NCBI GenBank assembly: GCA_963693025.1
Contig: OY843749.1
Span: forward strand, 2,957,617-3,021,616
From: Arenicellales bacterium
GTDB lineage: Bacteria; Pseudomonadota; Gammaproteobacteria; Arenicellales; Poriferihabitantaceae
DNA: 64,000 bases
Direction: 5' to 3'
Below, in pieces: positions 2,517-64,000 of the stretch. Position numbers and translations under genes: made by a program. The notes under the pieces are model-generated. The model saw only the letters and a program-made list of their open reading frames with translations. It was not told the DNA's origin and ran no database searches. The first letter of the stretch is position 1; every line of letters starts with the position of its first letter.

Positions 2517-2532
2517 GCAACGGATAAGCGGC

Positions 2533-3873: not shown

Positions 3874-3877
3874 GGCA

Positions 3878-15871: not shown

Positions 15872-15895
15872 AAGTGGGCGGATTAGCCGGGCGGA

Positions 15896-29896: not shown

Positions 29897-29904
29897 ATGC
29901 AACT

Positions 29905-35684: not shown

Positions 35685-35926
35685 CGTCATTCCCGAACAG
35701 TAGAAAATAGGGAGCCCCCAACCCCGTCATTCTCGAACGATAGAAAAATAGGGAGCCGTTAGGCGACCATATTTTTCATCGCCTTCGGGAATCTCCCTAA
35801 GGCTGCCGTGAATTCCAACAAAGCCCGTGCCAACCTGATGGAGATTCCCGAGGACGCAAGTGTCCGTAAGCCGCCGCTTAAAAGAAAAAGCGCGGCGGCA
35901 ACGGACACTAACGCTCGAGAATGACG
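35685..35926. repeat. MITE-like repeat, copy 5 (extra T module 35685-35718 plus core 35725-35926, T to S)
   Basis: The termini and GCCGCCGC hairpin match the other copies. The right arm of the central hairpin is degenerate (TGATGGAGATTCCC). Confidence 0.9.
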
Positions 35927-42296: not shown

Positions 42297-42536
42297 CGTC
42301 ATCGAGAGCGGTAGAAAACAGGGAGCCCCAAACCCCGTCATTCTCGAACGATAGAAAAATAGGGAGCGTCAGCGACCATATTTTTCATCGCCTTCGGGAA
42401 TCTTCCTAAGTCTACCGTGAATTCCAACAAAGCCCGTGCCAGTATTAGGAAGATTCCCGAGGACGCAAGTGTCCGTAAGCCGCCGCTTAAAAGAAGAAGC
42501 GCGGCGACTAACGGACACTAACGCTCGAGAATGACG
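42297..42536. repeat. MITE-like repeat, copy 6 (extra T module plus core 42336-42536, T to S)
   Basis: The architecture matches the other copies. The central hairpin arms read GGGAATCTTCCTAA (42396-42409) and TTAGGAAGATTCCC (42445-42458), a paired C>T/G>A change relative to other copies. Confidence 0.9.
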
Positions 42537-42765
42537 AGTAGTAGGCGCGCGGCGGTGGTAGGATGTGGCGTGTTGGGGTTGGGGGTGGCGCGGCGGTGGT
42601 TGTGGTGGCGCGAAGAAAGAAATACCGCATAGCCGCCAAGCGCCCACAGGTATATAATCCCTCATCAAACCACCGCCGCAACCCGCTTGCTTTTTCGGTG
42701 AACGGACAGCGAACGCCGCGTGTTGTCATACCGGTAATTAAATTTTGTTGAACGCGAACAGCACT

Positions 42766-46413: not shown

Positions 46414-46457
46414 ATTGCGGGAACACCCCAAGCGCTAAACGCGCCGCACTTCGAGCG

Positions 46458-47081
46458 ATGAACTACGAAACGATCACCGCCCTGACGGTCTTTGCGCTGG
46501 TCGCCGCCATGACACCGGGTCCCAATACCTTGATGCTGCTGACATCCGGCGCCAACTTCGGATTCAGGCGAAGCCTCCCGCACATGTCGGGCATCCTCGC
46601 CGGGTTTGCCCTCATGGTGGTGTTGGTGGGCATCGGCTTGATGCAGTTATTCAACGCCTTCCCGGTCAGTTATCTCGTGCTAAAGTTTGCCAGCATCGCC
46701 TACCTGTTGTTCCTCGCGTGGAAAATTGCGACCGCCTCCAAACCCGATGACGGCGGCGGTGGCGAGGGCGGCGAAATCGTGCAAGGCAAACCATTCACTT
46801 TCTTACAAGCCGCGCTCTTTCAATGGGTCAATCCCAAAGCCTGGGCGGCTGTGCTCGCCGCCCTCAGCGCCTACACGCCGCCGTCGCGCCCGCTATCCGG
46901 CGTCTTTCTGGTCGCGCTAATTTTCACGCTGGTGAACGTGCTGTCCGCTTGCACCTGGACGGTGGCGGGCGTGCAGGCAAGACGCTTGTTATCCGAGCCG
47001 TTGAAACTGCGCGTCTTCAACGTGACGATGGCGTTGTTGTTGGTCGCCACGCTGTATCCCATTTTGTTTAACCGCATTTGA
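46458..47081 (+). CDS. LysE/RhtB-family amino-acid exporter
   Basis: 207 aa with six hydrophobic helices, an N-terminal TPGPNTLMLLTSG motif and a WVNPKAW motif. Confidence 0.8.
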   Translation: MNYETITALTVFALVAAMTPGPNTLMLLTSGANFGFRRSLPHMSGILAGFALMVVLVGIGLMQLFNAFPVSYLVLKFASIAYLLFLAWKIATASKPDDGGGGEGGEIVQGKPFTFLQAALFQWVNPKAWAAVLAALSAYTPPSRPLSGVFLVALIFTLVNVLSACTWTVAGVQARRLLSEPLKLRVFNVTMALLLVATLYPILFNRI

Positions 47082-47088
47082 GCGCACG

Positions 47089-47408
47089 ATGACCGTCATC
47101 AACTTCATCCTCGCCGACGGCAGCCGCCACGCCGTTGAAGCCACCGACGGCGAAGTGGTCATGCGCGTCGCCGTGCGCAGCGGCTTCTCCGGCATTCTCG
47201 CGGAATGCGGCGGCGCGTGCAGTTGCGCCACCTGCCATGTGCATATCGACCCGTCGTGGGTCGACAAACTGCCGCCCAAAGACGAACTGGAAACCGAGAT
47301 GTTGGACTTTGCCGAAGGCGTGGACGCGACCAGCCGCCTCAGTTGCCAAATCAAAATCACCCCGGCGTTGGATGGTTTAATCGTCCACGTGCCGGAGTCG
47401 CAGTATTG

Positions 47409-47409
<1 letters not shown>
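47089..47409 (+). CDS. [2Fe-2S] ferredoxin, adrenodoxin/putidaredoxin type
   Basis: 106 aa with the cluster ligands in CGGACSCATCHV...SRLSCQI. Confidence 0.85.
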
Positions 47410-49391
<1,982 letters not shown>

Positions 49392-49484
49392 TAGTGCTAA
49401 AATTGCCGTTTGGCGATGCCAATTTTAGTGGTTTATCGAGCCGCCAAAAGCGTTATAGTGCTATCTCTAATATCGGATGACATA

Positions 49485-52319
49485 ATGAACACCATTCACA
49501 GTTTGTTAAGGAATAAGGTCGAGACATGGGTAAGACTGGAGAAAGAAAATAACCAATCTCTTGTCAAAAATATGCTTCAACACATTGACAAAGTCGGAAA
49601 GCTTCGCCCACCGCAGAAAGAAGCCATAGAAACCCACCTTTGGATTAAATTCGTGGGCAATAATAAAAAACTCTCTGATGTGGTAAGGAACGGGCTTTTA
49701 TATGACGATAGCGTTGCCATGACGTATGGAAATTATCTCACTTTCAAAAAAGGCGATTATGTTGCCCAATTCTTGAATCAATTCTTTCAAGATAACAGGT
49801 TAAAGAACCTGCACAAGGAACTCTTAAATGATCCAAATGGAAAAGAAATCAGTTGGAATTCCACGCTTGATGACTTGCTCCACAATTTCGAGTACCCAAA
49901 TTACCTCTACAGTCTTCCAATGGGGGCAGGCAAAACATTTTTAATGGCTTGTTTCATTTACCTTGATCTTTATTTTGCTACTTTATTCAAAGAAGATAAA
50001 AGATTTGCTCACAACTTCGTTGTTTTCGCGCCACACTCTGCAAAAACCGCAATCCTTCCATCCCTCCGAACAATCAAGGATTTCAACCCTGAATGGATAC
50101 TGCCAAAGAATGATGCCGATAAACTGAAACAAGTTATTTCTATTGAGATACTTGATAGTTTAAGTTCCAAAAGAAAAGACAAGTTGCATGGAAATAACCC
50201 AAACCTTGAAAAAGTAAATCGAATGAAACAGACAAAAGATTTTGGGCTTGTCTTTATAACCAACGCTGAGAAAGTAGTACTTGAAAAGTATGATGATAGG
50301 GATAAAGCGCTGGTAGATAGCCTTGAGAGAGGACAAGCAGATGCGCTTGATGCGCGCTCGATCGATGAAATAAAGAAATCGAATCAACTCAGAGAAGCAT
50401 TATCGCAGATACCAAATCTAACGGTAATACTTGATGAAGTGCACCATTCTTACGGAAGCACGGGAAACGGAGAGAAAAAACTGAGGCAGGCGGTCAATAT
50501 ACTAAACCAGCATAAACACATTAATACCGTTATCGGATTATCCGGTACACCCTACGTTAAAAGTGAAATTAAAGTTGCCGACAACAGTATACGATTAAGT
50601 CAGATACAAGACATAGTTTATAACTACCCCTTAAATATTGGCATTGGCAAGTTTCTAAAGAAACCTGTCATTAAAAAAGCAAGCGTAAGAGAAAAAGCAT
50701 TTATCCAACAGGCTCTTTCAGACTTTTTTAAGGATTATGACAAAAAGTATAAGGATGGAACAAAAAGCAAAATAGCTTTTTACTGTCCTTCGATTAAAAA
50801 ATTGAATGATGATATTCTTCCTGTCGTTCAGGAATGGTACCGCAAAAATCGCTCTAAAAAAGAAGAAGAAATATTTAGATATTATTCGAAAGTAAAAAAG
50901 GATAATAAGCAGTATGCGTTACCAAGAGATAGCCTTGCTATTTTCAACAATCTCGACAGACCATACTCAAAAAAACGGGTAATTTTATTGGTTGCAGTCG
51001 GCACGGAAGGTTGGGATTGCAGAAGTCTGACAGCGGTTGTATTGCCAAGACAAGACACGCCTAAGAATTTTGTATTGCAGACAGCTTGCAGATGTTTGAG
51101 AGAGGTTGATGATTCGGCGCACGAAAGTGCGCTTATTTATTTATCAGAAGAAAACCATGAAACTCTCGACAAAGAATTGAAGGAAAATTATCAGCTTTCA
51201 ATATCCGATTTCTCTGAAAGGAAAGAACAAACGATACAAGTTCAAGTTCGCAAACCAAAACTGGGAAAACTCAAATACAAGCAAATTGACACTCGTTACA
51301 AGATTGTCAAAAAAATGGCGCCCGACATAAAGAAAGAATTGACAAAGTTAAGATTTTCAAAATTGAAAAGCAAGTATAAGTATGACAAGAGCATCGTCTC
51401 CGGCACGATCGGTAAAACGGGGATAACAGGTGAGGTAGCAGCAGATCACATCAAGGAAAAAAGCAACGGCATGTTTTCTTTTGCAGAATTTATTTACAGT
51501 CTGTCTGCCAATACATATGCAAAGTTTAGCGAACACGAACTGGAGAGTAAGTATAAAGATGACCTTTCACAAATACATAAACAAATTTCTAGAAATTTGG
51601 AATGGATAAATTTAAATCCTTATATCGGATTAACTGATATTGTAAAGTTTATCGCGGCCAGTTTTATGGACAAGGTGGAATACACCAAAGATATTATAAA
51701 AAACGAAACTGAGATTGAACTTCTGGAGTGGGCAGGCACTGACAATGAGATGAGTTTCTTTTCTCCAACCGGATCAACTTATAAGTTTATGCCGAAAATT
51801 AGTATGGCGAATTATGGGGGAAATAGAGGCTACGGGAAACACCTAGAATATATGGAAGACGACTTTTTTGGAGAGAGCGGTATCGACCCACAGGACATCA
51901 GTTTTAATTACATTCCTTACAAAATGGACAGCGAATTTGAGCAAAATACTCTTGCGGAAATGTTGAAATTGGCTGAACTCAAGGGGCTTGAAATTTATTT
52001 TAACGGGTATAAAGATGAAAAACTGCAGTCATTTTGGATACAAACACCGCGAGGAAAATATACTCCGGATTTTTTGATATTGAAAAGAAAGGGGGGTAAA
52101 TACAGGAAAAACAGAAAGGCGATTATTGACAAGGTGTTTATTGTCGAGACAAAGGGGAAACCTTATTACAACGATGAATTTAAAGCGAAAGAGAAGTTTG
52201 TTAATGACGAGTTTTTGAGGCATAATGAGCACTTCGAATATCGTTGTTTCCTCGATGACGGAAAAAACGATTTCACAAAGCATCTTGGTAGATTTAAGAA
52301 ACTTTTGGAAAATTTCTAA
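49485..52319 (+). CDS. Type III restriction enzyme Res-like SF2 helicase-nuclease (island 2)
   Basis: Walker A SLPMGAGKTF, DEVH box (VILDEVHHSYG) and LSGTPY. The C-terminal PD-(D/E)xK-like motif is YTPDFLILKRK...VFIVETKGK. Line 50581-50640 has 18/60 G+C. ATG 49485 is preferred over TTG 49410. Confidence 0.8.
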   Translation: MNTIHSLLRNKVETWVRLEKENNQSLVKNMLQHIDKVGKLRPPQKEAIETHLWIKFVGNNKKLSDVVRNGLLYDDSVAMTYGNYLTFKKGDYVAQFLNQFFQDNRLKNLHKELLNDPNGKEISWNSTLDDLLHNFEYPNYLYSLPMGAGKTFLMACFIYLDLYFATLFKEDKRFAHNFVVFAPHSAKTAILPSLRTIKDFNPEWILPKNDADKLKQVISIEILDSLSSKRKDKLHGNNPNLEKVNRMKQTKDFGLVFITNAEKVVLEKYDDRDKALVDSLERGQADALDARSIDEIKKSNQLREALSQIPNLTVILDEVHHSYGSTGNGEKKLRQAVNILNQHKHINTVIGLSGTPYVKSEIKVADNSIRLSQIQDIVYNYPLNIGIGKFLKKPVIKKASVREKAFIQQALSDFFKDYDKKYKDGTKSKIAFYCPSIKKLNDDILPVVQEWYRKNRSKKEEEIFRYYSKVKKDNKQYALPRDSLAIFNNLDRPYSKKRVILLVAVGTEGWDCRSLTAVVLPRQDTPKNFVLQTACRCLREVDDSAHESALIYLSEENHETLDKELKENYQLSISDFSERKEQTIQVQVRKPKLGKLKYKQIDTRYKIVKKMAPDIKKELTKLRFSKLKSKYKYDKSIVSGTIGKTGITGEVAADHIKEKSNGMFSFAEFIYSLSANTYAKFSEHELESKYKDDLSQIHKQISRNLEWINLNPYIGLTDIVKFIAASFMDKVEYTKDIIKNETEIELLEWAGTDNEMSFFSPTGSTYKFMPKISMANYGGNRGYGKHLEYMEDDFFGESGIDPQDISFNYIPYKMDSEFEQNTLAEMLKLAELKGLEIYFNGYKDEKLQSFWIQTPRGKYTPDFLILKRKGGKYRKNRKAIIDKVFIVETKGKPYYNDEFKAKEKFVNDEFLRHNEHFEYRCFLDDGKNDFTKHLGRFKKLLENF

Positions 52320-52321
52320 CG

Positions 52322-54142
52322 ATGAAAAAATCGAAACCATACAACCTATCGCCGGCAAGAGGGCAAGCGCTTCTTAACTTTGAGGGTAGAAGGTTCCCTG
52401 ACAAACTAGATGTGTTTGAAACTGAAGTCATTGAAACAGTCCGAAAGAAACAGTCGAAAGCGCAGTCCTTGTTAAGCGAGGAAAGTGATTTAAATGCTGA
52501 TTTCAGGAATTTACTCATTCAAGGTGATTGTTTATCTGCTTGCGCCTATTTGAAGTCAAGGAGCATTAAGGTCGATTTAGTTTATATTGATCCACCGTTT
52601 GCAAGCGGAGCAAATTATGCCAAGAAGATTTACCTGCGTAATGGGGGCAAATCTCAGATCGAAGCGGACGACAATACTATTGGTGAAGAGGTGATGTATG
52701 GAGACATCTGGCAAAAAGAAGATTACCTTAATTGGTTGTATGAAAGATTGCTCGTAATTAAAGATGTTATGAATGAAACAGCAAGCATTTATGTGCATTT
52801 GGACTGGCATATTGGGCATTATGTAAAGATATTGATGGATGAAATATTTGGGGAGGAGAATTTTAGGAACGAGATTATTTGGCATTATCCGGATAACTTC
52901 CAAGGCAATGTAAACCGGTATCCTATTAACCATAATGTAATTTTTTATTATGTGAAAACAGCAGACAATTTTGTTTATAAAAGATTGCAAGAGAAATTGG
53001 ATAAAAAAGTAAAACGACCAACAAGAATATGGGATAAAACTACACAAAAACTAGAAATTGACCGCGATCATAACGGTGCTCCGGTATACAAAGAGTATAG
53101 TGAGAAATTTATTGATGATGTTTGGCGGATTGCACAAAGACCGGTTGTAGTGCCGGGTAATAAAGAACATACTGGCTATACAACTCAAAAACCTGAAGCT
53201 CTTTTAGAGCGTATCATCAAAGCATCGTCAGACGAAGGGATGATAGTTGCTGATTTCTTTTCCGGTTCTGGAACAACAACCAAAGTAACCAGCGATCTAA
53301 ACCGTAAATTCGTAGCTTGCGATATAGGCATCAATGCCCTGCAAACTACAAGAGATCGCCTTGTCAAGGCTGGGGCAAATTTTGATATATTGAAAATTAA
53401 TGATGGTTTACGCCTTTTCAGAAACCCAGCACAAACAACCGCAAAAATATTCAGCATCATTGATGGTTTCAGGTCCAGAACAGATTTGGATTTAAATGAC
53501 TTCTGGGATGGTGGTATCGCTCAGGCAAAAGGCTCCTACACCCCTGTAAAATTTTCAGGCATTCACGACAAACTCACCAAAGAACTCTTGGATGTATATC
53601 TGGAAGAAATCTATAAACTCGAAGACACCGACAGCGCCAGTGAAGTGGTTATTATTTATGCCCATAAAGATGTGGATATTGACCAAGCATCGTTGGATAA
53701 ACGACTCAAGAGAATTGCTAAAACAGAGATACAGGTAAAACTTGTTTCTTTGGATAGCCTGCTAGGTGAGAAAAAAGACGCTCTTTTCACGCCTGACAAC
53801 GCAGATATTAAAATAACCAAGAAAGGAAATAAATACAAAGTAGAAATCAAGAAATTTTACAGCCCTTACCTGAAAAATAAAATTGACGAGTACAACGCAA
53901 AGAAAGTGAAAAGTGGCACGATAGTAAAAATCGGCAATGCTGGATTAGAAATGATTGAAGCGGTGCAATTTGATACTACTTGTCGGAAAGTTTGGAAAAG
54001 CAACAGTGATTTAGAAGATAAAGCAGGCGTTAAAGACAGAGTCAAAGCCGTTTATACACTCGCCACGAGCAACTTTAGAATGAAAATTAGAAACATAGCA
54101 GGTGATGAAATAATAATTGATAGCAAGGAAATAAGCGGCTAG
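52322..54142 (+). CDS. beta-class amino (N6-adenine/N4-cytosine) DNA methyltransferase, Type III Mod-like (island 2)
   Basis: Motif IV VYIDPPFASGANY precedes motif [24 protein letters not shown] is present. It starts 2 nt after the res stop. Confidence 0.85.
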   Translation: MKKSKPYNLSPARGQALLNFEGRRFPDKLDVFETEVIETVRKKQSKAQSLLSEESDLNADFRNLLIQGDCLSACAYLKSRSIKVDLVYIDPPFASGANYAKKIYLRNGGKSQIEADDNTIGEEVMYGDIWQKEDYLNWLYERLLVIKDVMNETASIYVHLDWHIGHYVKILMDEIFGEENFRNEIIWHYPDNFQGNVNRYPINHNVIFYYVKTADNFVYKRLQEKLDKKVKRPTRIWDKTTQKLEIDRDHNGAPVYKEYSEKFIDDVWRIAQRPVVVPGNKEHTGYTTQKPEALLERIIKASSDEGMIVADFFSGSGTTTKVTSDLNRKFVACDIGINALQTTRDRLVKAGANFDILKINDGLRLFRNPAQTTAKIFSIIDGFRSRTDLDLNDFWDGGIAQAKGSYTPVKFSGIHDKLTKELLDVYLEEIYKLEDTDSASEVVIIYAHKDVDIDQASLDKRLKRIAKTEIQVKLVSLDSLLGEKKDALFTPDNADIKITKKGNKYKVEIKKFYSPYLKNKIDEYNAKKVKSGTIVKIGNAGLEMIEAVQFDTTCRKVWKSNSDLEDKAGVKDRVKAVYTLATSNFRMKIRNIAGDEIIIDSKEISG

Positions 54143-54196
54143 AAAACCATTTCCGCGGTTGAGAAGAGCAGTAGGTCACCTTAAGTCGAGCGACAC

Positions 54197-55342
54197 ATGA
54201 CAAAAAATTTTTTCAACGAAAGCACGAAACAGTCACGGGTCAAGTCTGCCATCGTTGCCAAATATTTTACAGCTTGGGCAAGGATAATTATTGGGGCCCA
54301 AAACAAGAATCCAGCGCAAGAGGATAAAAGAATTGCTTACATAGATTTGTTTGCCGGGCCGGGTCGATATTCAGATGGCACAACTTCAACGCCTTTGCGG
54401 ATTTTGGGAGTGGCCATTAAGAACGAAGATATTCGTCAAAGACTCGTAACATTTTTCAATGATAAAGATCAAGAGCAAATGAATTCGTTAGAGAAATCTA
54501 TCGGTCAATTATCGGATGTAGATTCACTCAAACATCCTCCAGAAATTTCAAATCAGGAAGTTGATGAAACTATCGCTAATACGTTTGAAAATAAAAAACT
54601 CGTTCCCACACTCTTTTTCTTCGACCCATGGGGTTATAAAGGGGTTACTTTGCGCTTGCTTAAGTCTGTACTGAAAGATTGGGGTTGTGATTGCATTTTT
54701 TTCTTTAACTATAATCGTATCAATATGGGGCTGAATAATCCTATGGTCAAAGAACATATGAATATGCTTTTTGGTGCGGAGCGTGCAGACAAATTAAGGA
54801 GGAAATTAAGTAGACTTTCCACGACTAAACGGGAATCGACTATCCTCGATGAATTGTGCGGTGCGCTACACGAATCTGGACCAGAATATGTATTACCGTT
54901 TTGCTTCAAGAATGACCGGGGGACAAGAGTGAGTCATTACCTAATATTTGTGAGTAAGAATTTCAAAGGTTATGAAGTTATGAAGGAAATTATGGCCAAA
55001 GAATCTTCGACAATTGTACAGGGTGTTGCCAGCTTCGAGTATAATCCAGCGGCGACACAAGTGCGGCAGGTGCTATTCTTTCCGTCACGCCCCCATGAAG
55101 CGTTGCGTCCTCTTGATGATTTGGGTGATATGCTTCTCAAAGAATTTTCTGGAGAAACAATCACGATGCGACAAATCTACAAACGACACAGCGTTAATCG
55201 CCCTTACATCAGTGCAAACTATAAGGAAGTACTCCAACAATTGGATCAACAACAAAAAATTACAGCACCTAAACACAAAAAAGGTACATTCGGAGATGAT
55301 GTTCCCGTAACATTTCCTCGATTAAAAGGAAATGAGCAATGA
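54197..55342 (+). CDS. tcmP: three-Cys-motif partner protein TcmP-like
   Basis: The N-terminus [23 protein letters not shown]...[11 protein letters not shown] and the later [10 protein letters not shown] match my memory of the TcmP family. It is followed, with an ATGA overlap, by a Gp37/Gp68-type gene, the defining context of that family. Confidence 0.65.
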
Positions 55343-56058
55343 GCGGAACATCGTCAATCGAATGGACCGAGACTACTTGGAATCCAGTCACAGGCTGTAC
55401 CAAAATCAGCGCCGGATGCAAGCATTGCTATGCTCATCGTATGGCTTTTCGGCTTCAGGCTATGGGTAATAAACGCTACCAGAATGGGTTCAAAATTACC
55501 CTCCACGACGACCTGATTGATGCGCCGAGAAGGTGGCGTTCATCACGTATAATTTTTGTCAACTCCATGAGCGATTTGTTTCATAAGGACGTGCCAACCG
55601 AATTCATTCAGCGCGTATTCCAAACGATGAACGATTGCCCGCAGCATACCTTTCAAGTATTAACCAAACGCGGCGGTCGCTTGAAAACTCTGGCGAACAA
55701 GCTCAACTGGACACCGAATATCTGGATGGGTGTCAGTGTAGAGGACGAACGTGTTTATCACCGCATCCATGACTTGCTTGAAGTGCCCGCTCATGTCCGT
55801 TTTCTTTCCTGCGAACCGCTAATTGGGCCAACGGAAAATCTGCCGCTTGATGGCATCCACTGGGTGATTGTTGGCGGTGAATCGGGACCTAAAGCAAGAC
55901 CGATGGAAAAAACTTGGGTTTGGTCAATCAGAAAACAATGTCGTGCTGTTGATGCCGCTTTCTTTTTCAAGCAATGGGGTGGTGTTCAAAAGCATCGGCA
56001 CGGGCGTCTGCTTAACAATCGGACATACGATGAAATGCCGGAAACTCAACCGGCATAG
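55339..56058 (+). CDS. phage Gp37/Gp68-family protein (DUF5131), three-Cys motif
   Basis: [26 protein letters not shown] (C-x6-C-x2-C) and the later [10 protein letters not shown]...FFFKQWGG are as I remember for PF07505 proteins. Confidence 0.7.
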
Positions 56059-56062
56059 CTGA

Positions 56063-56086
56063 GCGCGTTTTACGCGCGTTTGTTTT
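56063..56086 (+). terminator. rho-independent terminator candidate ending island-2 operon
   Basis: GCGCG-tttta-CGCGC followed by GTTTGTTTT, 5 nt after the stop of the DUF5131 gene. Confidence 0.5.
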
Positions 56087-56217
56087 AATCGGATTTCGAT
56101 TTTCTCCGTTGCCATCGTCAGTCAGAGGTTTTGAACACTAATGCCATCTGTGTCAAAAAGTTATGGAACTATCAAGCAAAGTTGATAAGAACAACAACTC
56201 CAACAAAAACAAAACCT

Positions 56218-56555
56218 CGTCATTCACAACAACCTCGTCATTCTCGAGCGTTAGTGTCCGTTGCCGCCGCGCTTTTTCTTTTAAGCGGCGGCTTACCGGA
56301 CACTTGCGTCCTCGGGAATCTCCCTAAGACTGACGCGGACTTGAACAAAGCGAGCGAAGCAGGCGGCGGGTAAGCCGCCATTCCCGCAGTCTTTTGAGCG
56401 GGAATGACGTTGTTTGGGCTCAGCGCTAGTCTTAGGGAGATTCCCGAGGACGTAAGCGCCCGTAAGTCGCTGCGCGACAACGGGCGCTAACGCTCGAGAA
56501 TGACGAGGTTATTGTGAATGACGGAGTAGGGGGACACTAACGCTCGGGAATGACG
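56218..56555. repeat. MITE-like repeat, copy 7 (composite: S end, nested insert, second S-like end, extra end modules)
   Basis: The core is 56236..56505. It has a 19-bp central hairpin, GGGAATCTCCCTAAGACTG/CAGTCTTAGGGAGATTCCC, enclosing an insert shared with copy 3. The extra modules reach 56555 and overlap the stop of the PglB-like gene. Confidence 0.85.
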
Positions 56556-58846
56556 CCTACTTCCCACAACGACACCGTCGGGCTCTGCACAAAAGCGTGA
56601 CGGAAGTAAGCGGGGTTCATTGTGTGGCGGATGAATAGGCGGTTGATTAGTGACTCGGCTACTTCGTGGGTCATTAGCATTCCGAATGCGGCGCTGGGTA
56701 TCCATTCGAAGTGCAGGCCGCCGGGGTGTCCGTAGTCGGTTTCTTCTAGCGCGTGTCCGGTGTGGGTGATGAATTTGTTGAGGGGTTGGCGGATGGTTTC
56801 GTCGTTGACCGAGAACACGGTGTTTTTTCCCTCGCGCACGTCGAAGGAGAAGTCGCCGCCGGTCATCAGCCTGTCGCCTTGCAGGCGCACGTTGTGGAAG
56901 AGCAGATGCGCCGGCGGCAAGCCCTTCCCGCGCGCCGCGTCCCAGGTGCCATACCAGAACCATTTGCTGGTTAGTTGCTCGTGATAGATGGACAGGAAAA
57001 TCGGCTCGGTGTTGTTGGGAAACAGGAAAGCGCGGCACGCTTCCACGGTGGCGAACTCATCGCCGTCGTTAGCGGTGCTTGATGCCGGCGCATCGGCAGC
57101 GAGTTGGTGCAGGCTTTGCGCGGCTGCATCGGCGGGCTTGCCAAACCATTCCCGCATCCAGCGCAAGCCCGTGTCGGTCGAGCCGGCGAGTTGGTTGATT
57201 TTCCGCAAGCCGCTCAGACCGCGTTGCGCGTAAAAACGAATGAAGTGGCGCGCGAACGCCGGGTCGTTGCTCGCCAGCGGCATATTCGCATAGACCTGCC
57301 GCTCGCCGCTCATAAACTCGCCATCCGCAATCACGCGCCGCCCGGTGTAATACATAATCGGATAGCCGAGCGACCACGGCGCCCACAGGAGCGCGTCGGG
57401 CGGGGTGTGCGCGCGAATGGCTTGGATGACCGGCAGCGCCAGCGTGATGCGCGGCGACAGCACCGATGAATCCAACTCGCGCGCCGCCGCCGGCACGATG
57501 GCGAGCGCCGCGCCCGCCGCGAAGAGGGGAGCGGCGAGCCAGTGCGCGGGCATTTCCAACCCAAACCGCAACCCCAATCGCCGCGCATGGCGGGCGGCGA
57601 GGGCGAGGATGAAGCCGGTGCCGATGCCGAGCGGCGGTCCCCAGAACAGCAGCCCGCGCTGGCCGAAGTAGAACGCGCTGAGGGCGAGCAGCACCGGCAC
57701 GGCGAGCGCGGTGAATGCCGCTTTGGGTTGCGCGCACGCCAGCCACGCGAGACCGGCGATGCCGAGTAGCAGGCTCGCGAGGAGACCCGTGGTGTTGTTA
57801 ATCAGCGATTGCAGACCGAAGCCGCCGAGTTCGGCGATGTCGGTCGCCACGTTGGGAAAGCCGCCGCCACCGCCACCGCTTTTGATGCCGTAGAACAAGA
57901 TTTCCCGGATGTTGCGCACGAGCGCGACCAGTTGTTCGCCCCACACGCCCGCCACGACGATGAGCAGAACCAACCCGAGCGCGGCGGCGGCGAGCGCTTC
58001 ACCGCGCGGCGGGCGGTAATACCACGCGGCGCTGATGAGCAACGGCGTGAGGCAAATCACCGCGACCACTTCCGGCGCCAGGTCCCACCACAGCGCGAAG
58101 AGTGCGGCGTTGAGCGCGGCGCCGAGCAGATAGAAATACCGCCGGCGGTCGCGGCATAAGCCGAAGCCCAGCGCCGCCGCCTGCGCGCCCAGGGTGAAGG
58201 CGACGATGAGGCAGTCGGTGTCGAATGCGCCGAGGCGCGTGCGCGTGACGAACCACTGGGTGTTGAGCGCAACCAGCGTGGCGACCAGCGCGGCGAAGGG
58301 CGGGATGCGCAACTGCCGGCAGAGCATCAGCACCGGAATGGACAGCAACAGGGCGAGGGCAATCGGCAGCAGCACGGCGGTCCACGCCAGCGACAGGGGA
58401 GTGGCGGCGCTGACCGTGGCGGTCATCCACGAGAGCAGCGGCACCGGCGCAGGGCGCGGCGGATGCTCCGGCGTGGTTCGCAATTCGTCGGTGGGCGCAT
58501 AGCGGTCGTCGCGATAGTCGCGCGCCAAGCGCAGGTAGTGGTAGCCGTCGGCGTTCAGCAACACCGGCTGGTCGTCAAAGAAATACCGCTCGCGATGGTC
58601 TTGCCACGCGCCGTAATCGGCAACGCGCAATGCGGCGCTGATGCCCAGCACCAGTAATAGGAGCAGCCACCATGTCGTGCGTGCGAGGCGGGTGGTGCTG
58701 AGCTCAGCGGTGGCGGTGGCGGTTGGCGACGACGGTTCCGGCGGCAACGGCGGCAACGTCGGCTTAGCGTCAGCCACCGCCGCCGTGTCGGTTACCGCCG
58801 ACTTGCGACCCGGCTTTCTTTTCCGGTGGGAGCGATTGGATGCCAA
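56537..58846 (-). CDS. STT3/PglB-family oligosaccharyltransferase homologue with non-canonical WWDYG region
   Basis: Four segments parallel Campylobacter PglB. [24 protein letters not shown] parallels [34 protein letters not shown] parallels [19 protein letters not shown] parallels [32 protein letters not shown] aligns with [22 protein letters not shown]. The protein has about 13 TM helices plus a periplasmic domain. Confidence 0.75.
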   Translation of the reverse strand: [769 protein letters not shown]

Positions 58847-58881: not shown

Positions 58882-60288
58882 TCACGCCTTCCACAATCCT
58901 TCGCGGGTCAGGTCGTCCATCACTTCAACGATGGACTCGCGCAACACCGACACCAGCGTATCGATTTGCTCGCGTGTCAATATCAGCGGCGGGGACAGCA
59001 CATTCAAGTGACCGATGGGGCGCACCAGCACGCCGCGTTTTTCCGCCGCATCGGCGATGCGATTGCCGACTTCAACCTCGTCCGCCAGCAGCGCTTTGCT
59101 GTGCTTGTCGGCGACGTTCTCCACGCACATCATAAAATGACTGCCGCGAATGTCGCCGACTATGTCGAGGTCGGCGAGGGTCGCAAGTTGCGCTTCCAGA
59201 TAGGGTCCGACTTCGCGCACATGTCCGCAAATATCTTCGCGCTCCATAATCTCAATATTTTTGAGCCCGGCGGCGCAGCACACCGGATGCCCCGAGTAGG
59301 TGAAGCCGTGGGTGAGCAATGCGCCTTTGGAGCGGGGGGCGCTGATGACGTCGTAGAACTCGTCGGACATGATGGTGGCGGACAGCGGGGCGTAGGCGGA
59401 AGACAACCCTTTGGCGCTGGTGATTAAGTCGGGCACGATGCCGAACACGTCTTGCGATGCGAAGAAGTGCCCGAGGCGCCCGAAGGCGGTGACGACTTCG
59501 TCGGCGATATACAGCACGCCGTGGCGGCGGCACACTTCCAGCATGCGGCGGTGGTAGTCGGGCGGGGCGACGATGACGCCGCCGGCGCCCATAATCGGCT
59601 CGGCGATAAAAGCGGCGACGTTGTCGGCGCCGAGCGCGGCGATTTTGTTTTCAAACTCATCGACCAGTTCATCGCAGAACTGCGCCGGCGACAAGCCGTC
59701 GGGGCGGCGGTAAGTGTTGGGCGATGACACGCGCTCAATCAAGCCGTCGTCGATGATGTCAAAACCTTGATGGTCGAACGCCACGCCGGTCAGCGACATC
59801 GCCAAATAAGTGCTGCCGTGATAGCCGTCGTGGCGCGTGATGATTTTCTTTTTGGATTGTTTGCCGAGCCGGTTGAAGTAGAAATGAACCATGCGAATGG
59901 CGGTGTCGTTAGCCATCGACCCGCCGGTGCCGAACTGAATGTGGTTGAGCCCGGCGGGGGCGAGCGAAGCCAGTTTATGCGCCAACTCGGCGGCGGGGAT
60001 GGAGGTGTGCGCGCCGAACGAGGAGTAATAAACCATCTTCCCCGCCTGCGCCGCCATCGCCTCGGCAATCTCGGTGCGCCCATAACCCACATTAACACAC
60101 CACAACCCGCCAATCCCATCGAGATATTTATTCCCAACCGAATCACAAACATAAGCCCCCTCAGCATCAGTCAAAACCAACGACCCCTTCTCCTCAAGCC
60201 CGGCAAAATCAGTCCACGGATGAAGATGATGCGCGCGGTCTTTACGCTGGATTTCCTGAGTGTCGTAGGGTGGGGTGGGTGTTTTCAT
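58882..60288 (-). CDS. class-III (omega) aminotransferase, SpuC-like polyamine/beta-alanine:pyruvate transaminase
   Basis: DRAHHLHPWTDF, GLWCVNVGYGR, AAFIAEPIMGAGGVIV and IADEVVTAFGRLG closely parallel P. aeruginosa SpuC as I recall it. Confidence 0.8.
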   Translation of the reverse strand: MKTPTPPYDTQEIQRKDRAHHLHPWTDFAGLEEKGSLVLTDAEGAYVCDSVGNKYLDGIGGLWCVNVGYGRTEIAEAMAAQAGKMVYYSSFGAHTSIPAAELAHKLASLAPAGLNHIQFGTGGSMANDTAIRMVHFYFNRLGKQSKKKIITRHDGYHGSTYLAMSLTGVAFDHQGFDIIDDGLIERVSSPNTYRRPDGLSPAQFCDELVDEFENKIAALGADNVAAFIAEPIMGAGGVIVAPPDYHRRMLEVCRRHGVLYIADEVVTAFGRLGHFFASQDVFGIVPDLITSAKGLSSAYAPLSATIMSDEFYDVISAPRSKGALLTHGFTYSGHPVCCAAGLKNIEIMEREDICGHVREVGPYLEAQLATLADLDIVGDIRGSHFMMCVENVADKHSKALLADEVEVGNRIADAAEKRGVLVRPIGHLNVLSPPLILTREQIDTLVSVLRESIVEVMDDLTREGLWKA

Positions 60289-60304: not shown

Positions 60305-62101
60305 TTATTTGGTGATAATCGTTTCTTCTCCCAGCATATCTACAATCTTTACTGCGATTTTAGCTTTGGCGCTGGGAAGGGACAACGTATACCGGCCTTT
60401 GATGAAGTCGCTTTTCTTTTGCGGGATGTCACTTTCCACGATGTTGAAGTGCTTGTTATTGTAGTTGGTGTCAATCAGTACGCAGTCGATTTGCGCGCGG
60501 AAGTCATCGATATGCTCATCAAAAAGCGTTCGGTCAATATTTAATCTAGCAAGGATGGTCGGGCTGATGTACTGCTCAATAGTTACGGTTGCCCGTTTCC
60601 CTCTTTTTGTGATTTTCACTTCTGATTCTGCGGGTTGATTGGTTATCATACCGTCCTGTTGAATATCGTGGACGGTGATTTTATTGATGGGACTCTTCTC
60701 CTCGGAAAGTTCGTTGATTATTTCCAATTCGGAACCGTTGCAGAACACTGCAATATCTCGAATATCGTCCGCCCGGTTGTTGGCAATTTCATCTTTGATG
60801 ATTTGTATATCCAATCGAGTCAACGGTCTGTTCAGGTCAATAACTTTTGCCAGCAAACCACCGACCGTTCCATCAAAGAACATATCCTGACGATCTATTT
60901 GAATGCCGTATTTGGAGATAATTATTTTCTTGAGATCGTTCTGTTTGGCACAGTCGTAATTGTTCACCCGATAGTGGATAAGTCCATGCCCATTTTTTTC
61001 CGTCAGTTTGTCGTTTTTTTCTTTGATTATGCTTTGTAATCTGTTGATGGTGGTTTGGATTGCGCCTTTGTTCAAATCAGCCATAATCCAGCGACGGCCT
61101 AATTTTTCCGTGACTGCGGCGGTTGTACCGGAGCCACAGAAGCAGTCAAGGATGATAGAATTTTCGTTGCTAGATGCTTTGATTATGCGCTCTAAAAGGG
61201 CTTCTGGTTTTTGGGTTGGGTAAGGTGTTCTTTCGAGGGCCACAGGATTTATCATTGAAATCTCCCAAAAATCACTAGTTCCTTCTTCAAATTTCCATAC
61301 ATCTGGCATAGGAACGCCTTTCGTCGGTTCTTTAGTTTGAATTGACACTCTTTGCCCATATTCATTAACGACACTTTTCCACGCAACTCCTTGAGCACTG
61401 GATTGTTCGCTTTTTGGAATAAACATTTGATTGAAAATATGAGACCCTTTTGTTTTGGCATACCAAAACACATTGTCGTAATTACTTGCAAATGATTTGG
61501 CTTCAATATTCCAGCGTCTGTAATACCATGCGATATTATTGCAAAAATTCTCCTCCCCAAAAACTTCATCTAATAAAAATCGCAAGTGATGATTTTTGCG
61601 CCAATCGCAATGCAAATAAATACTGCCTTGATCGCTCAACAACTCCCGTAGCAAAATCAATCGCTCATACATGAACTGTAAATAATTATCATTTGCCCAA
61701 ATGTCCTCATACTGCGCTTGTTCTACTCTTGAGTAACCTTCACTCGCAATTTCGTTACTATTTCCGTTACCATTTCCATTGCCTACACCGCGCAACTTGA
61801 CCTTGCGCACATAATCCGCGCCACTGTCAAATGGTGGATCAATATAAATTAAATCAATCTTTCCCCTAAACCCCGAAATCAAAAGGGAAGACAGAATTTC
61901 TTTGTTATCGCCGTGAAGCAGTAGATTGTAATTATTTTCGGCAAATTGCTTGTAAGAGGGCTCCGCGGGTGGATTGCTTATGCCAACTCCTTCACACAAT
62001 TGTGCGGGAAAATGCTTGACAACATCAAGCGGCTTTTTGCCTACCCAATGCAATAATGGACGACCTTTGACGGAACTAATTTTAAGCGACTTCTTTTTCA
62101 T
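60305..62101 (-). CDS. beta-class amino DNA methyltransferase, Type III Mod-like (island 3, paralogue of 52322..54142)
   Basis: Motif [15 protein letters not shown], then [17 protein letters not shown] and motif [10 protein letters not shown]. The region is AT-rich. The start overlaps the res stop (ATGA). Confidence 0.85.
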
Positions 62102-64000
62102 TTCCTCACCCAGTCCATAACTGGCTTGATGTCTTCGATACCGATAGCGTTTGTCGAAGTATAGACGATGTTGTACTTGAACCTGTCCGGTTGTATTTTT
62201 TGCAACCTCTCGACCGCCTTTCTCTTGGCTTCCACGATAGCGTCCTTGCGTCTACTTTCGTCTTTAACCTCAACGATGTAAAATTCCCCAGTCTTTTTTA
62301 CAATCACGAAATCGGGAAAATAGCGGTGATACCGCTTGTCCTCACCCAGATATTCAAAGTGAAAATCGGTTTTTCTCGAATCGGTCATTCCACCGGTGAA
62401 TAAGAACGCTTCCACATCATCGGGGTCAGTATTCAGCACGGATAAAACCTGTTGAAATAATGAACGCTCTGGCTGGCTGTCAAAGTTGTAAGGATCATAG
62501 TGAAAACTCAGATTATGCTTGTCCGAATACTGGCCGCTTTCAGCAAACAGGTCATTTTGCTTCATTTCATCGTATGTTTTTTCCAGCAAGCGCAAATTAT
62601 GAACATAAACATCATTTGCATCTTTCTCAAAAACATCCTCCCCGTTCTCATCCTGCATTCGAATTAACGCCATCACTTCTGTTACCGTATCTTTAACTGT
62701 TTTGTAGTTCGCTTGCTGTTGTTCGACCTGACGAAAAAGTCCGTATAGATGATTATCCGGTATTTCCCCTTTCGGGTAAAAGTTGTTCAGTTTTTCCAAT
62801 ATCCACATCACAGGCAAATGATATCGCGATGCGATTTTCCAAGCGGCGGTGTGGCAATCTGTTCCTCGCTTTTCCGCAGGCAACTCCATGGTTTCGCCTG
62901 TCGGCAACAATATTTCCCTCGGTCCGCTGAAATCCGGTGTTAATATGCTACGCAGAATTCCGGGCATTTGTTGCGCTTTTGGTTTTGTTAAAGCGACCTT
63001 CCCGCATTTTGCGTCATCCCTTTCCGCTCTTTTCACCGTACGGGTGATTTCCAGTTTCGGTAGTTCGGTTTTGAGGATGCGCAGAGTGACGGTTTTTTTG
63101 TTGCGTTCCCTAAATCTAAGATCATCCAAATTGGAACGAAAATTTTCCTGCAACTGTTTGTTTAGCGTGTTGGAATTTCCGGAGTCGAGAAAGATTTTTG
63201 CCGAATGTGTGTTGCCCGGAACCTGCCGCAAACATCGAGTTGCCGCTTGTAAGACGTAGTTGTTGCTTGATGTTTGTTCTTTAATTAACGCACAAGCAAA
63301 CAAACTTGGGCAATTCCAGCCTTCCACCCCTTTGCTGATAAGTAAAATCACCCGCTTTTGATTGCCGGGATTATTAAGCCGTTTGAATTCGTCTATCTGG
63401 GCGGCGGCGGATGTTTGCGTATTTACCAGTATCTGTGCAGCATTTTCCCCGACTTTGGCCATCGCCAATTCAATCAGCGGTCGGGAGTTGTCCAAGTGCG
63501 CTTGCGTTTTGAAATAGAAAGCAATTTTTGCTTTCGCTCCGTTGGGAAGTGAAACATCGCCGTAATTATTGAAAAATTCCTCTATGATGTCGGCAAATAC
63601 GATTTTTTCTGAGCGTTTTTTCAAGTTGTATTGATGAATGCCATTATTCAGGTCTTTCAAAATGTTGTCTTTGATGCCTTCCCCAAGTCCATACCAGACA
63701 ATCACCTCTTTCAAGGGTTGCTTTTTATAGTATGGCGTTCCGGTTGTGTTGATTACTGCAATTATCTGTGTTTGTTGATGTATGTAATCAATTGTTTCCC
63801 GCACTCGTTTTATTTTGTCAAAAGTATTTCCATAGGTATGGTGGGCTTCATCGGAAAACACGCCGAGATTCGGCAGACTTGCAATTTTTTGCAATCTTAA
63901 ATTTGCTTGCGCTTCTTTGTGCTCAAAAGCTAGCGCGCTCTGATTGCTTCTTTGCTTGGCGCGCAGGCTGATTTTTTCGGTGTTGGTTACAATCAAGTTA
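62098..64000 (-). CDS. Type III Res-like SF2 helicase-nuclease, 5'-truncated by window edge (island 3)
   Basis: DEAH box ([12 protein letters not shown]), TTGTPYY, and the C-terminal PD-(D/E)xK-like [22 protein letters not shown]. Walker A is not seen, so the N-terminus must lie beyond 64000. Confidence 0.8.

Follow-up and report, generated by a model that had tools for sequence, protein, structure and literature searches.

The bacterial oligosaccharyltransferase (OST) PglB, known from Campylobacter lari and C. jejuni (structures 3RCE, 5OGL and 6GXC), belongs to an Und-PP-heptasaccharide pathway. In PglB, D56 is a metal ligand that also hydrogen-bonds to the acceptor amide, E319 is the second ligand of this amide, D56 and E319 together twist the Asn carboxamide, and R375 is a ligand of the donor phosphate (PMC7226087). 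Further, R375 contacts the pyrophosphate and Y468 the C2 N-acetyl group of the first sugar; conservation of R375 extends to AglB and eukaryotic STT3 (PMC7226087). The WWD motif is conserved in STT3, AglB and PglB, that is, in every one of life's three domains, and its sole described role is to read the Ser or Thr at position +2 (PMC7226087). Lipid-linked N-glycosylation in bacteria is conventionally held to be confined to delta- and epsilonproteobacteria (PMC4973528). A preliminary description of the DNA analyzed here agrees with this view; it gave epsilon- and some deltaproteobacteria as the main hosts of bacterial N-OSTs.

Other systems use monophosphate-linked sugars. Haloferax volcanii uses dolichol monophosphate: AglJ, a GT2 enzyme, charges the polyprenyl monophosphate with a hexose, and AglB is the STT3-family transferase. 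In the Gtr systems (GtrB, an Und-P-Glc synthase; GtrA, a flippase; and a serotype-specific GT-C enzyme), in ArnC/ArnT, and in PpgS with its GT-C enzyme, a GT2 makes a polyprenyl-phosphate sugar, which a GT-C uses for sugar transfer outside the cytoplasm. Classically, the targets of systems that combine a polyprenyl-phosphate sugar synthase, GtrA and a GT-C are glycans rather than proteins (PMC11127046).

We found that a 64,000-nucleotide stretch of DNA (the window, meaning the whole stretch analyzed) contains a gene for a very divergent member of the STT3/PglB family (Table 1). The Pfam STT3 family PF02516 matched the 769-residue product with 37.8 bits (gathering score 24.5; E=2.2e-9) and is present in 29 of 29 close homologues. 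The STT3/PglB/AglB core family PF21436 reached 20.3 bits, below its gathering score of 23, and over residues 487-541 only; some relatives carry PF21436. Compared to proteins in the PDB, the single sequence matched C. lari PglB (3RCE) at E=1.9e-8. The family profile matched C. lari PglB at E=3e-21, but AglB at only 0.89. A predicted model of the protein (pLDDT 78.4, pTM 0.76) had PglB (6GXC) as its best Foldseek match, over the full length (E=1.1e-24, TM 0.67/0.73). Other matches were to AglB (2e-11), STT3 (~1e-9), DPY19 (6e-5) and ArnT (9e-4). By the model and the Foldseek matches, the protein is a predicted GT-C with a multi-helix membrane domain and a C-terminal periplasmic domain, and OSTs are nearer to it than other GT-C families are. 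Residues 1-50 form a non-conserved cytoplasmic tail, the transmembrane core extends from about residue 55 to 460, and the periplasmic domain from about 465 to 769. A GTG codon at residue 24 of the open reading frame is a possible alternative start.

The protein is not a PglB equivalog. It is only ~14% identical to PglB, and it scored 47.8 bits against the NCBIfam PglB equivalog NF050801 (cutoff 1300). Using hhalign, residues 258-743, including the C-terminal part, were homologous to a PglB-type protein from Desulfovibrio with a probability of 98.3%. Approximately 400 clusters (at 50% identity) matched the family profile at E<=1e-30. The hosts of the clade that includes the window protein are uncultured Gammaproteobacteria and metagenome-assembled genomes labeled Nitrospirales. 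Judged from sequence and the predicted model, the product is a real, very divergent enzyme of the STT3/PglB lineage, and its branch is large and bacterial. We found no description of such a system in the literature searched. The preliminary description had recognized the open reading frame exactly and had placed the product with STT3/PglB; it named assignment to another GT-C family, such as ArnT, PMT or YfhO, as an outcome that would refute this. Pfam, profile and Foldseek results all uphold the placement with STT3/PglB. In addition, the four segments that it quoted are all present, and HMMER aligned each of them to C. lari PglB (3RCE) as proposed.

Table 1. Features of the window. Residue numbers refer to the STT3-like protein unless PglB is named; R-M, restriction-modification.
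Feature	Position	Strand	Description	Basis
STT3/PglB-family GT-C glycosyltransferase gene	56537..58846	-	769 aa, TTG start	ORF list, Pfam, profile, Foldseek
D100 codon	58547..58549	-	EL1 'NADGY'; equivalent to PglB D56	Invariant in alignments A1 and A2; aligned to D56
D209-T210-D211 codons	58214..58222	-	DxD metal site; equivalent to PglB D154/D156	Invariant; alignment
E339 codon	57830..57832	-	EL5 'DIAE'; equivalent to PglB E319 of the TIXE motif	Invariant; aligned to E319
R397 codon	57656..57658	-	Equivalent to PglB R375	Invariant; alignment
P490-W-S-L-G-Y-P496 codons	57359..57379	-	Slot of PglB W463-W-D-Y-G-Y468-P	Alignment; clade pattern
D508-G-E-F-M512 codons	57311..57325	-	Slot of PglB D-G-G-K-H485	D-G invariant; His replaced by clade-invariant Met
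C604-R605 codons	57032..57037	-	Periplasmic helix 'CRxFLFP'	Invariant in clade; W-L in canonical-WWD relatives
W629-F-W-Y-G-T-W-D636 codons	56939..56962	-	Periplasmic motif	Common to Desulfovibrio PglB-type protein (…WISFYGSWD…)
Composite palindromic repeat element	56187..56540	.	Inverted repeats	50-nt arms, 92% complementary
Low-GC (0.37-0.43) defense island	49410..56058	+	At GT2 position	GC profile, Pfam, synteny
Second low-GC Type III R-M island	60305..63996	-	Methylase and res-like gene	ORFs, GC, Pfam
Class-III aminotransferase	58882..60288	-	PRK07036 type	Pfam 278.5 bits; NCBIfam 725 bits vs cutoff 618

By alignment, the catalytic set of OSTs (D56, R147, D154/D156, E319 and R375 of PglB) is conserved in the STT3-like protein. 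The equivalents D100, R202 (which lies N-terminal of the DxD site), D209, D211, E339 and R397 are invariant across a 48-sequence alignment with a mean identity of 32%, as are G494 and D508-G509, the latter equivalent to the D-G of DGGKH in PglB. This clade-wide invariance bears out the earlier statement that the catalytic acidic residues are conserved. The catalytic loops are placed in the periplasm by homology to PglB, as for a GT-C that functions outside the cytoplasm.

In contrast, the acceptor pocket has been rebuilt. In the WWDYG slot, other residues stand in for the first Trp and the Asp, and the second Trp, the Gly, the Tyr (equivalent to Y468) and the Pro are retained. The change of WWD to P-W-S had been noted before. 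We found that it is not peculiar to this protein: the slot departs from the canonical WWD and reads x-W-[S/T/N/H], then x-G, in 25 of 25 aligned clade members. Three further positions differ between members with WWD and members with xW[ST]. Position 512, the equivalent of H485, is His in 93 of 108 WWD members and Met in 21 of 33 xW[ST] members. Position 604 is Trp in 90/108 compared to Cys in 21/33, and position 605 is Leu in 63/108 compared to Arg in 23/33. The equivalent of PglB R331, which reads an Asp or Glu at -2, is the non-basic N351, and varies among G, N, E, D and L in the clade. An MXXI motif (in bacteria) or a DK motif contacts the +2 residue in canonical N-oligosaccharyltransferases. 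No alignable MXXI motif was found in the STT3-like protein; the helix containing C604-R605-x-F and the motif W629-F-W-Y-G-T-W-D are candidate regions. Because positions 490/492, 512 and 604/605 co-vary and the new residues are fixed in the clade, the aligned sequences indicate remodeling of the pocket (WWD together with H512 to M and W604/L605 to C/R) rather than decay.

The relatives of the STT3-like gene have a partner that the window does not. A gene for a GT2 polyprenyl-phosphate sugar synthase is directly downstream of the STT3-like gene in 12 of 15 clade loci (33-75% identity, two phyla), and the stop and start codons of the pair often overlap. The GT2 is usually fused to a GtrA-type domain (PF04138), a domain that the P0009-P0018 subclade lacks. 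Among NCBIfam models, the GT2 matches PpgS, AglJ, ArnC and Dol-P-hexose transferase best; none of the partners reached an equivalog cutoff, including that of AglJ. In the wider family, about half of the 40 loci with full flanks have an adjacent GT2 on the same strand (15/32 with WWD, 4/8 without), and all ten of those tested matched the AglJ model over essentially the full extent of the model (78-137 bits). We found no other conserved neighbor, candidate target protein or extending glycosyltransferase near the module in the 15 clade loci. Likewise, no pgl-type cluster (phosphoglycosyltransferase, flippase and several glycosyltransferases) was found in these loci or in four wider-family loci with Pfam-annotated flanks (L015-L018). 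Synteny thus shows that the GT2 is a real, conserved partner, and its type points to a monophosphate-linked single-sugar donor and not to an Und-PP-oligosaccharide of the pgl type.

The preliminary description overlooked this partner because it is absent from the window. It was right that no pgl glycan-assembly genes flank the gene there. In contrast, its proposal that the class-III aminotransferase is the operon partner did not survive comparison: of the 15 clade loci, just three (the window, L004 and L008) have that gene next to the STT3-like gene, and in L004 it closes an ABC-transporter operon. The aminotransferase is an upstream neighbor, not a functional partner.

The STT3-like protein and GT2 resemble AglB and AglJ in combining an STT3-family transferase with a GT2 of the type that loads a hexose onto a polyprenyl monophosphate. 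They differ in that the transferase is far nearer to PglB than to AglB by both profile and Foldseek, the hosts are bacteria, the GT2s fall below the AglJ cutoff, and extending glycosyltransferases are not conserved nearby, so that a single sugar is the simplest reading. There is also a likeness to the Gtr systems, in that clade relatives have a GtrA-type membrane module, there fused to the GT2 (PMC11127046). However, the GT-C here is of the STT3/PglB family and has the Glu that activates the Asn amide, whereas the known GT-Cs of Gtr systems, ArnT and related GT-Cs come from other families, and their acceptors are glycans or lipid A. In addition, the GT2 and GtrA components of the three-component system are both missing in the window.

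We looked for the missing partner. There is no GT2 or GtrA gene anywhere in the window, and no relocated GT2-GtrA orthologue from the window lineage was seen in the protein database. Window positions 44428-49385 match positions 16145-21096 of L004, and L008 has a GT2 gene between the same anchors. The GT2 gene has been deleted from the window genome and its 97% relative, and a repeat element and variable R-M islands are in its place. The repeat element abuts and overlaps the stop codon of the STT3-like gene and marks the junction where relatives carry the GT2. Six further copies are present in the window, and the R-M insertion in L004 is flanked by the same element. The island at the GT2 position encodes a Type III res-like helicase/endonuclease, an N6/N4 DNA methylase, a GMT-wHTH protein and a DUF5131 protein. 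The second island lies between the aminotransferase and the operon that was ancestrally upstream of it; L004 has ABC-transporter genes there. In the window, the donor-synthase gene was precisely swapped for interchangeable defense islands at a repeat-marked hotspot, and the transferase survives.

The STT3-like gene is still under purifying selection without its partner in cis. Neither the window nor L004 has the GT2, and their junction is the same. Between them, dN/dS for the STT3-like gene was 0.157 (0.119 for the core; 75 substitutions) compared to 0.171 for a flanking metabolic gene. Since selection on the transferase continued after loss of the synthase, a gene located elsewhere must now supply the donor.

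Based on these results we infer the donor chemistry, the transfer of a single sugar, an Asn of a protein as acceptor, and a new sequon. We give roughly even odds to the reading that the protein is an active, single-subunit STT3-like transferase with a polyprenyl-monophosphate sugar as its donor and an acceptor rule other than N-x-S/T. The GT2 partner (AglJ/DPM1/GtrB type) would put one sugar on undecaprenyl phosphate at the cytoplasmic face of the membrane. The lipid-linked sugar would then get to the periplasmic face, possibly via the GtrA-type domain fused to the synthase. There, the STT3-like enzyme would bind the phosphate via R397 and a divalent metal (D100, D209, D211 and E339) and pass the sugar to a periplasmic acceptor. 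Because D100 and E339 are invariant and sister lineages with the same type of partner keep WWD, the acceptor is most likely a protein Asn. The reader of the +2 Ser/Thr (WWD, the His512 equivalent, and W604/L605) would have been exchanged for the fixed x-W-S/T, M512 and C604/R605. Given that this reader is replaced and that the -2 Arg of PglB has no counterpart, we expect a recognition rule other than (D/E-x-)N-x-S/T. Activity with a different acceptor rule, as predicted, would fit the invariant catalytic residues, the dN/dS of 0.12-0.16, and the coordinated, fixed change in the pocket. Several points count against this explanation: the window lacks GT2-GtrA, with no relocated orthologue in the protein database, the GT2 partners fall below every NCBIfam equivalog cutoff, three-component systems with GtrA classically act on glycans (PMC11127046), and GT2 adjacency holds for only about half of the wider-family loci. 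In addition, loss of both WWD and the R331 equivalent is also expected if peptide recognition was abandoned.

It is possible, although unlikely, that peptide recognition was indeed lost and that the enzyme is the GT-C of a Gtr- or Arn-type three-component system, transferring sugar from Und-P to O-antigen, LPS core, capsule or a periplasmic glucan. A GT2 with a GtrA-type partner is the architecture of the classical three-component systems (PMC11127046), and no candidate target protein is conserved beside the module. However, E339, equivalent to the EL5 Glu that twists the Asn carboxamide with D56, is invariant, and canonical WWD is kept in sister lineages that have the same kind of GT2 partner. 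Furthermore, the WWDYGYP block retains the second Trp, the Gly, the Tyr and the Pro, and the substituted positions hold fixed residues instead of varying freely. We consider it doubtful that the protein is a conventional PglB-type N-oligosaccharyltransferase that differs only in its sequon rule and uses an Und-PP-oligosaccharide made by genes elsewhere, as the preliminary description had it. PglB is the nearest solved structure, the equivalents of R375 and Y468 are conserved, and the gene is maintained in the window without a GT2. But the conservation of R375 in AglB and eukaryotic STT3 means that this residue does not distinguish pyrophosphate from monophosphate donors. The absence of a pgl-type cluster from the clade loci and from L015-L018, the single conserved neighbor being of the polyprenyl-monophosphate sugar synthase type, and the very low score against the PglB equivalog also argue against a conventional PglB.

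Loss of WWD and, in the window genome, of the donor synthase might have left an orphan gene that is decaying. The partner in cis has been deleted with mobile DNA in its place, and the 4-kb native islet that carries the STT3-like gene has a foreign island on either side. However, the open reading frame is intact, all of the catalytic residues are invariant, and dN/dS between two partner-less lineages with a common deletion junction is similar to that of the flanking metabolic gene. The motif change is clade-wide, fixed, and older than the loss of the GT2. Decay of a non-functional relic is thus highly improbable.

More tentatively, and with somewhat less than even confidence, we suggest that an AglJ/DPM1-type synthase and a PglB-related transferase make up a widespread two-gene system for single-sugar, monophosphate-based N-glycosylation of periplasmic proteins far outside the delta- and epsilonproteobacteria, and that its sponge-symbiont-associated x-W-S/T clade no longer reads N-x-S/T. 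A clade that keeps the residues of the catalytic site while exchanging WWD in a coordinated, fixed way is a natural experiment on change of the OST acceptor rule, and changing that rule is a long-standing aim in glycoengineering. The two-gene cassettes of L005 and L008 are compact and directly testable in E. coli. If true, the x-W-S/T clade would be a natural example of re-specification of an OST sequon (WWD/H/W-L to xWS/M/C-R). If these systems glycosylate proteins, then lipid-linked N-glycosylation in bacteria would be much broader than the textbook delta/epsilonproteobacterial distribution and would include an archaeal-like route with a monophosphate donor.

We found that the STT3-like gene of the window encodes a member of the STT3/PglB superfamily with a GT-C fold. 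The preliminary description had proposed homology to PglB, and the searches agreed. The protein matched Pfam STT3 (PF02516) at 37.8 bits (gathering score 24.5), and Campylobacter lari PglB was its top solved-structure match in a single-sequence search (E=1.9e-8). A 25-member family profile searched against the PDB recovered PglB at E=3e-21 and archaeal AglB at only 0.89. An AlphaFold2 model made from the family alignment (mean pLDDT 78.4, pTM 0.76) matched PglB over its full length in Foldseek (E=1.1e-24, TM 0.67/0.73), with AglB (2e-11), eukaryotic STT3 (~1e-9), DPY19 (6e-5) and ArnT (9e-4) as runners-up. Because the Pfam, PDB-profile and Foldseek matches favor PglB, the protein is not assigned to another GT-C family, the alternative that the preliminary description had raised. 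ArnT, PMT, DPY19, ALG and Emb/Aft were ruled out, with Foldseek scores at least 19 orders of magnitude worse than that of PglB.

The gene lies within 4.1 kb of native-composition DNA (GC 0.61-0.64), with low-GC segments (0.37-0.43) on both sides. Translation could instead start from a GTG at residue 24, and the N-terminal ~50 residues show no conservation across homologues. An S-layer match to the low-complexity N-terminus was taken as noise. HaoB is a membrane protein encoded beside hydroxylamine oxidoreductase in nitrifiers. The NCBIfam HaoB model gave a weak match, probably noise, to residues 473-587 (~57086-57430) at the start of the periplasmic domain (E=0.09, 12.3 bits); the STT3 periplasmic core fold could also occur in HaoB.

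The catalytic residues of PglB are kept. We counted equivalent positions in HMMER alignments to 3RCE and took residue roles in OSTs from a structural review (PMC7226087). D100 (PglB D56) corresponds to an acceptor amide and metal ligand, R202 (R147), D209 (D154) and D211 (D156) to the metal site, E339 (E319) to the second amide ligand of the carboxamide-twist mechanism, R397 (R375) to the residue at the donor phosphate, and D508-G509 to the conserved D-G of PglB DGGKH. All of these were invariant in the 25-member clade alignment and also across 48 sequences with a mean identity of 32%, and the catalytic residues are conserved across the wider family as well. Y495 (Y468), equivalent to the residue in contact with the first sugar's C2 N-acetyl, is nearly invariant in the clade and is H in about a third of the WWD-bearing relatives. 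An equivalent of MXXI/DK was not located by sequence comparison in the window protein.

The recognition motif is changed. The described role of WWD is to read the +2 Ser/Thr of the sequon (PMC7226087). P490-W491-S492 occupies the slot of PglB W463-W464-D465, so the altered triad seen in the preliminary description is real, and every clade member has x-W-[S/T/N/H] there; W491, G494, Y495 and P496 are kept. In PglB, R331 recognizes the acidic residue at -2 of the bacterial sequon (PMC7226087); the aligned position is N351, which is variable within the clade. We analyzed motifs and co-variation in 220 distinct family sequences, of which 108 had canonical WWD, 24 had xWD, 33 had xW[S/T] (mostly from the clade of the window and the closest relatives of that clade) and 55 had other combinations. 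Three further positions co-vary with this slot. Position 512 (the slot of PglB H485) is H in 93 of the 108 WWD members and M in 21 of the 33 xW[S/T] members; position 604 is W in 90/108 and C in 21/33; position 605 is L in 63/108 and R in 23/33. M512, C604 and R605 do not vary in the close clade. As the new residues (x-W-S/T, M512, C604, R605), which may line the +2 pocket, form a fixed set, they suggest a newly selected specificity and not relaxed constraint. The window protein lacks a WWDYG motif, an equivalent of R331 and a pgl context, and scores 47.8 bits against the NCBIfam PglB equivalog (cutoff 1300); it fails as a canonical PglB-type N-OST.

Relatives of the gene have a partner. A GT2 gene, encoding a putative polyprenyl-phosphate sugar synthase, lies directly downstream of the STT3-like gene in 12 of 15 independent loci (L001/L006, L002/L013, L003, L005, L007-L012 and the nearest outgroups L019 and L020). 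Across these 12 loci the STT3-like protein is 33-75% identical to the window protein. Complete pairs occupy 10001-13437 in L005 and 8076-11296 in L008. The STT3-like stop and the GT2 start overlap or are at most about 55 nt apart, and the GT2 carries a GtrA_DPMS_TM domain in most loci (L003 has no GtrA). All-against-all clustering of flanking ORFs gave no other conserved neighbor. The top NCBIfam matches of the GT2 were PpgS (polyprenyl-phospho-GalNAc synthase), AglJ, ArnC and Dol-P-hexose transferase, all polyprenyl-monophosphate sugar synthases and none at its cutoff; phmmer found no match to the GT2 in the PDB.

We fetched 80 metagenome loci of the wider family and scored those with full flanks. 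Of the 32 loci with WWD, 15 had an adjoining same-strand GT2, as did 4 of the 8 without it, which rules out a pairing specific to WWD-less enzymes. Ten of ten wider-family GT2s tested (282-365 aa) matched the AglJ model nearly end to end at 78-137 bits (cutoff 325); PpgS was second-best for 9 of them, and most also matched PgfS, Dol-P-hexose transferase and ArnC. The adjoining GT2 is missing in the distant members P0090 and P0047 and in locus L014. Since the GT2 is found beside WWD and non-WWD members alike, the two-gene module belongs to the bacterial branch as a whole; in the window's clade it takes a derived form, with the GT2 fused to GtrA and the putative pocket altered.

Some WWD homologues from sediment, lake and hydrothermal metagenomes lie back-to-back with a full-length AglJ-like GT2, upstream or downstream. 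Such pairs resemble a minimal bacterial N-glycosylation module of archaeal style and merit a study of their own.

The window has lost the GT2. Window 60290-56216 is collinear with the 97% relative L004 (on the 609-kb contig ena:ERZ22155170:ctg25871l) at 96.8% identity, and collinearity resumes at 49385-44428 (96.2%; both by blastn). L008 (62% protein identity) has the aminotransferase, the STT3-like gene and the GT2 in that order, followed by a homologue of window 49381-42766. Because L008 keeps the GT2 between anchors that are collinear in the window and L004, the GT2 was deleted in the window/L004 lineage. A tblastn search of window 56000-56600 for a GT2 remnant gave chance-level matches only (E>=0.12), blastn found no window counterpart of the GT2 region of L008 (10227-11341), and none of 3616 GT2/GtrA hits in the protein database was a relocated orthologue from this lineage. 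The GT2 orthologue set in that database mirrors the loci that keep the pair.

A low-GC defense island now occupies the interval. L004 carries a different gene there, encoding a Type ISP-like R-M protein, and therefore the cargo at the former GT2 site is interchangeable. A composite palindromic repeat, one arm of which overlaps the STT3-like stop codon, bounds the cargo in both genomes. This repeat family is MITE/REP-like and may mark a hotspot of island integration. Two separate low-GC Type III-like R-M islands flank the 4-kb native segment.

The preliminary description took the class-III aminotransferase for an operon partner, which the comparison did not bear out. The aminotransferase (Aminotran_3; NCBIfam PRK07036, 725 bits, cutoff 618) adjoins the STT3-like gene in only 3 of the 15 loci (the window, L004 and L008), and L004 has it at the end of an ABC-transporter operon that lies upstream. 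The second island separates it from this ancestral operon in the window. Promoter and terminator scans from the aminotransferase to the STT3-like gene gave nothing decisive. The aminotransferase is a neighbor through lineage-specific synteny, not a functional partner.

Features of the window and of homologue loci; positions are those of the window unless a locus is named
Feature	Position	Strand	Remarks
PIG-V-like GT-C / AZOBR_p60025-family protein	2455-3873		
UbiA-family prenyltransferase	3857-5380		PRK08238 530 bits, cutoff 351; related to decaprenyl-phosphate phosphoribosyltransferase
NAD-dependent epimerase/dehydratase	5190-6716		
AbiEii-like AAA_21 ATPase	19266-20525	minus	
TOTE conflict-system protein	21492-23891	plus	AEP-TOTE primase domain fused to ResIII/DEAD helicase
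Low-GC island, 6.6 kb	49410-56058		GC 0.37-0.43; ResIII/endonuclease protein, N6/N4 methylase, GMT-wHTH, DUF5131
GMT-wHTH protein	54197-55342		stop overlaps start of DUF5131 gene
DUF5131 protein	55339-56058		start overlaps stop of GMT-wHTH gene
Composite palindromic repeat	56187-56540		50-nt terminal inverted arms, nested inverted repeats
Shorter repeat copies (six)	1544-1653, 13076-13191, 15701-15875, 29903-30010, 35821-35926, 42430-42538		91-96% identical to composite
Same repeat family in L004	L004 12263-12557, 15744-16082		
STT3-like ORF	56537..58846	minus	769 aa, TTG start
Second low-GC island, Type III R-M	60305-63996		GC 0.37-0.43
WWD STT3 homologue with AglJ-like GT2	L031 3803-6906; L041 3779-6867; L024 2933-6052; L042 3047-6226		

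We infer the function of the enzyme throughout, and the window copy itself has no donor synthase. Euryarchaeal AglB and AglJ use monophosphate carriers, to which we liken the proposed Und-P donor. This donor would be Und-P-linked and probably a single sugar, as in Gtr, Arn or PpgS systems (PMC11127046). The conservation of Y495 and the best match of the GT2, a GalNAc-P-polyprenol synthase, weakly hint at a HexNAc. The catalytic architecture is like that of PglB, and this type of enzyme would be supplied with donor in the manner of Gtr or AglJ/AglB systems; by analogy, the transferase would work most like a hybrid, with PglB-like catalysis and Gtr or AglJ/AglB-like feeding. The acceptor would most likely be protein Asn, because E339 is retained and WWD persists in sister lineages whose partner is of the same type. 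The clade would have abandoned N-x-S/T and would not require an acid at -2.

The main rival to protein Asn is a glycan or lipid acceptor, that is, the classical three-component role. The GtrA-fused partner resembles that of such systems; a third component or target gene conserved near the module was searched for in the flanks and none was found. It is less likely that the enzyme is a conventional Und-PP-oligosaccharide OST; the PglB-like catalytic set would suit one, but no conserved extending glycosyltransferases or pgl-type genes occur near the STT3-like gene. Deletion of the GT2 raises the further reading that the window copy is a dead relic, which is also less likely. We compared the window with L004, both of which have the same deletion junction. 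The STT3-like genes differ by 51 synonymous and 24 non-synonymous changes, with a dN/dS of 0.157 (0.119 for residues 55-769); the values were 0.022 for the aminotransferase and 0.171 for the flanking acyl-CoA-synthetase-like gene. Given this low dN/dS between two genomes that share the junction, the partner-less gene is not decaying and is under purifying selection. Transfer of a sugar from Und-P to protein Asn would be our preferred reading.

The clade is rare and its parent family is broad. A word-indexed search recovered 29 close relatives, 42-97% identical and all uninformatively named; below these came a gap and then a Desulfovibrio PglB-type protein at E=2e-5. In hhalign the match to this protein had 98.3% probability over residues 258-743, through the C-terminal domain, with a common W-x-x-x-Y-G-S/T-W-D motif. 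Clade members occurred in only 9 of 185,579 species-representative genomes, all uncultured MAGs titled Gammaproteobacteria or Nitrospirales. An exhaustive profile search gave 414 clusters (50% identity) at E<=1e-30, many full length, named only 'hypothetical protein', 'STT3 domain-containing protein' or 'asparagine N-glycosylation enzyme membrane subunit Stt3'; hosts of the parent family include Parasphingorhabdus and Deferrisoma. Relatives carry isolate names (STY4_bin_4, PNGst_C_binSS2) that, together with the R-M density, suggest sponge symbionts as hosts, a suggestion read from names only (for context, PMC8163846).

In Nitrospirales-labelled MAGs (L001/L006 and L007) the STT3-like protein shares 61-62% identity with that of the window, and the adjoining GT2-GtrA shares ~70% with the GT2 of L005. 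L001/L006 is OY843588.1, a 2.99-Mb chromosome labelled 'Nitrospirales bacterium'. Compared with the gammaproteobacterial loci, these identities imply movement of the cassette across phyla. One assembly sample, ERZ22155170, holds three versions of the cassette (L001, L004 and L005). The P0009-P0018 subclade (for example L003 10001-13088) has long Ala/Pro/Arg-rich repetitive insertions in a transferase loop after ~residue 425, and its GT2 (242-258 aa) has no GtrA-type domain, matching PF00535 only. The L003 cassette adjoins genes for a giant autotransporter and fn3-repeat proteins.

Elsewhere, window 2455-6716 (GC about 0.70) holds a second, unrelated candidate extracytoplasmic glycosylation cluster that resembles polyprenyl-P-pentofuranose three-component systems (PMC11127046). 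Further defense genes lie within a lower-GC stretch at 18-24 kb.

The standard view confines lipid-linked N-glycosylation in bacteria to delta- and epsilonproteobacteria (PMC4973528). The full-text literature that we searched contained no description of the clade or of the two-gene bacterial module. The STT3-like system is real, uncharacterized and broad at the family level, and its compact cassettes make it testable.
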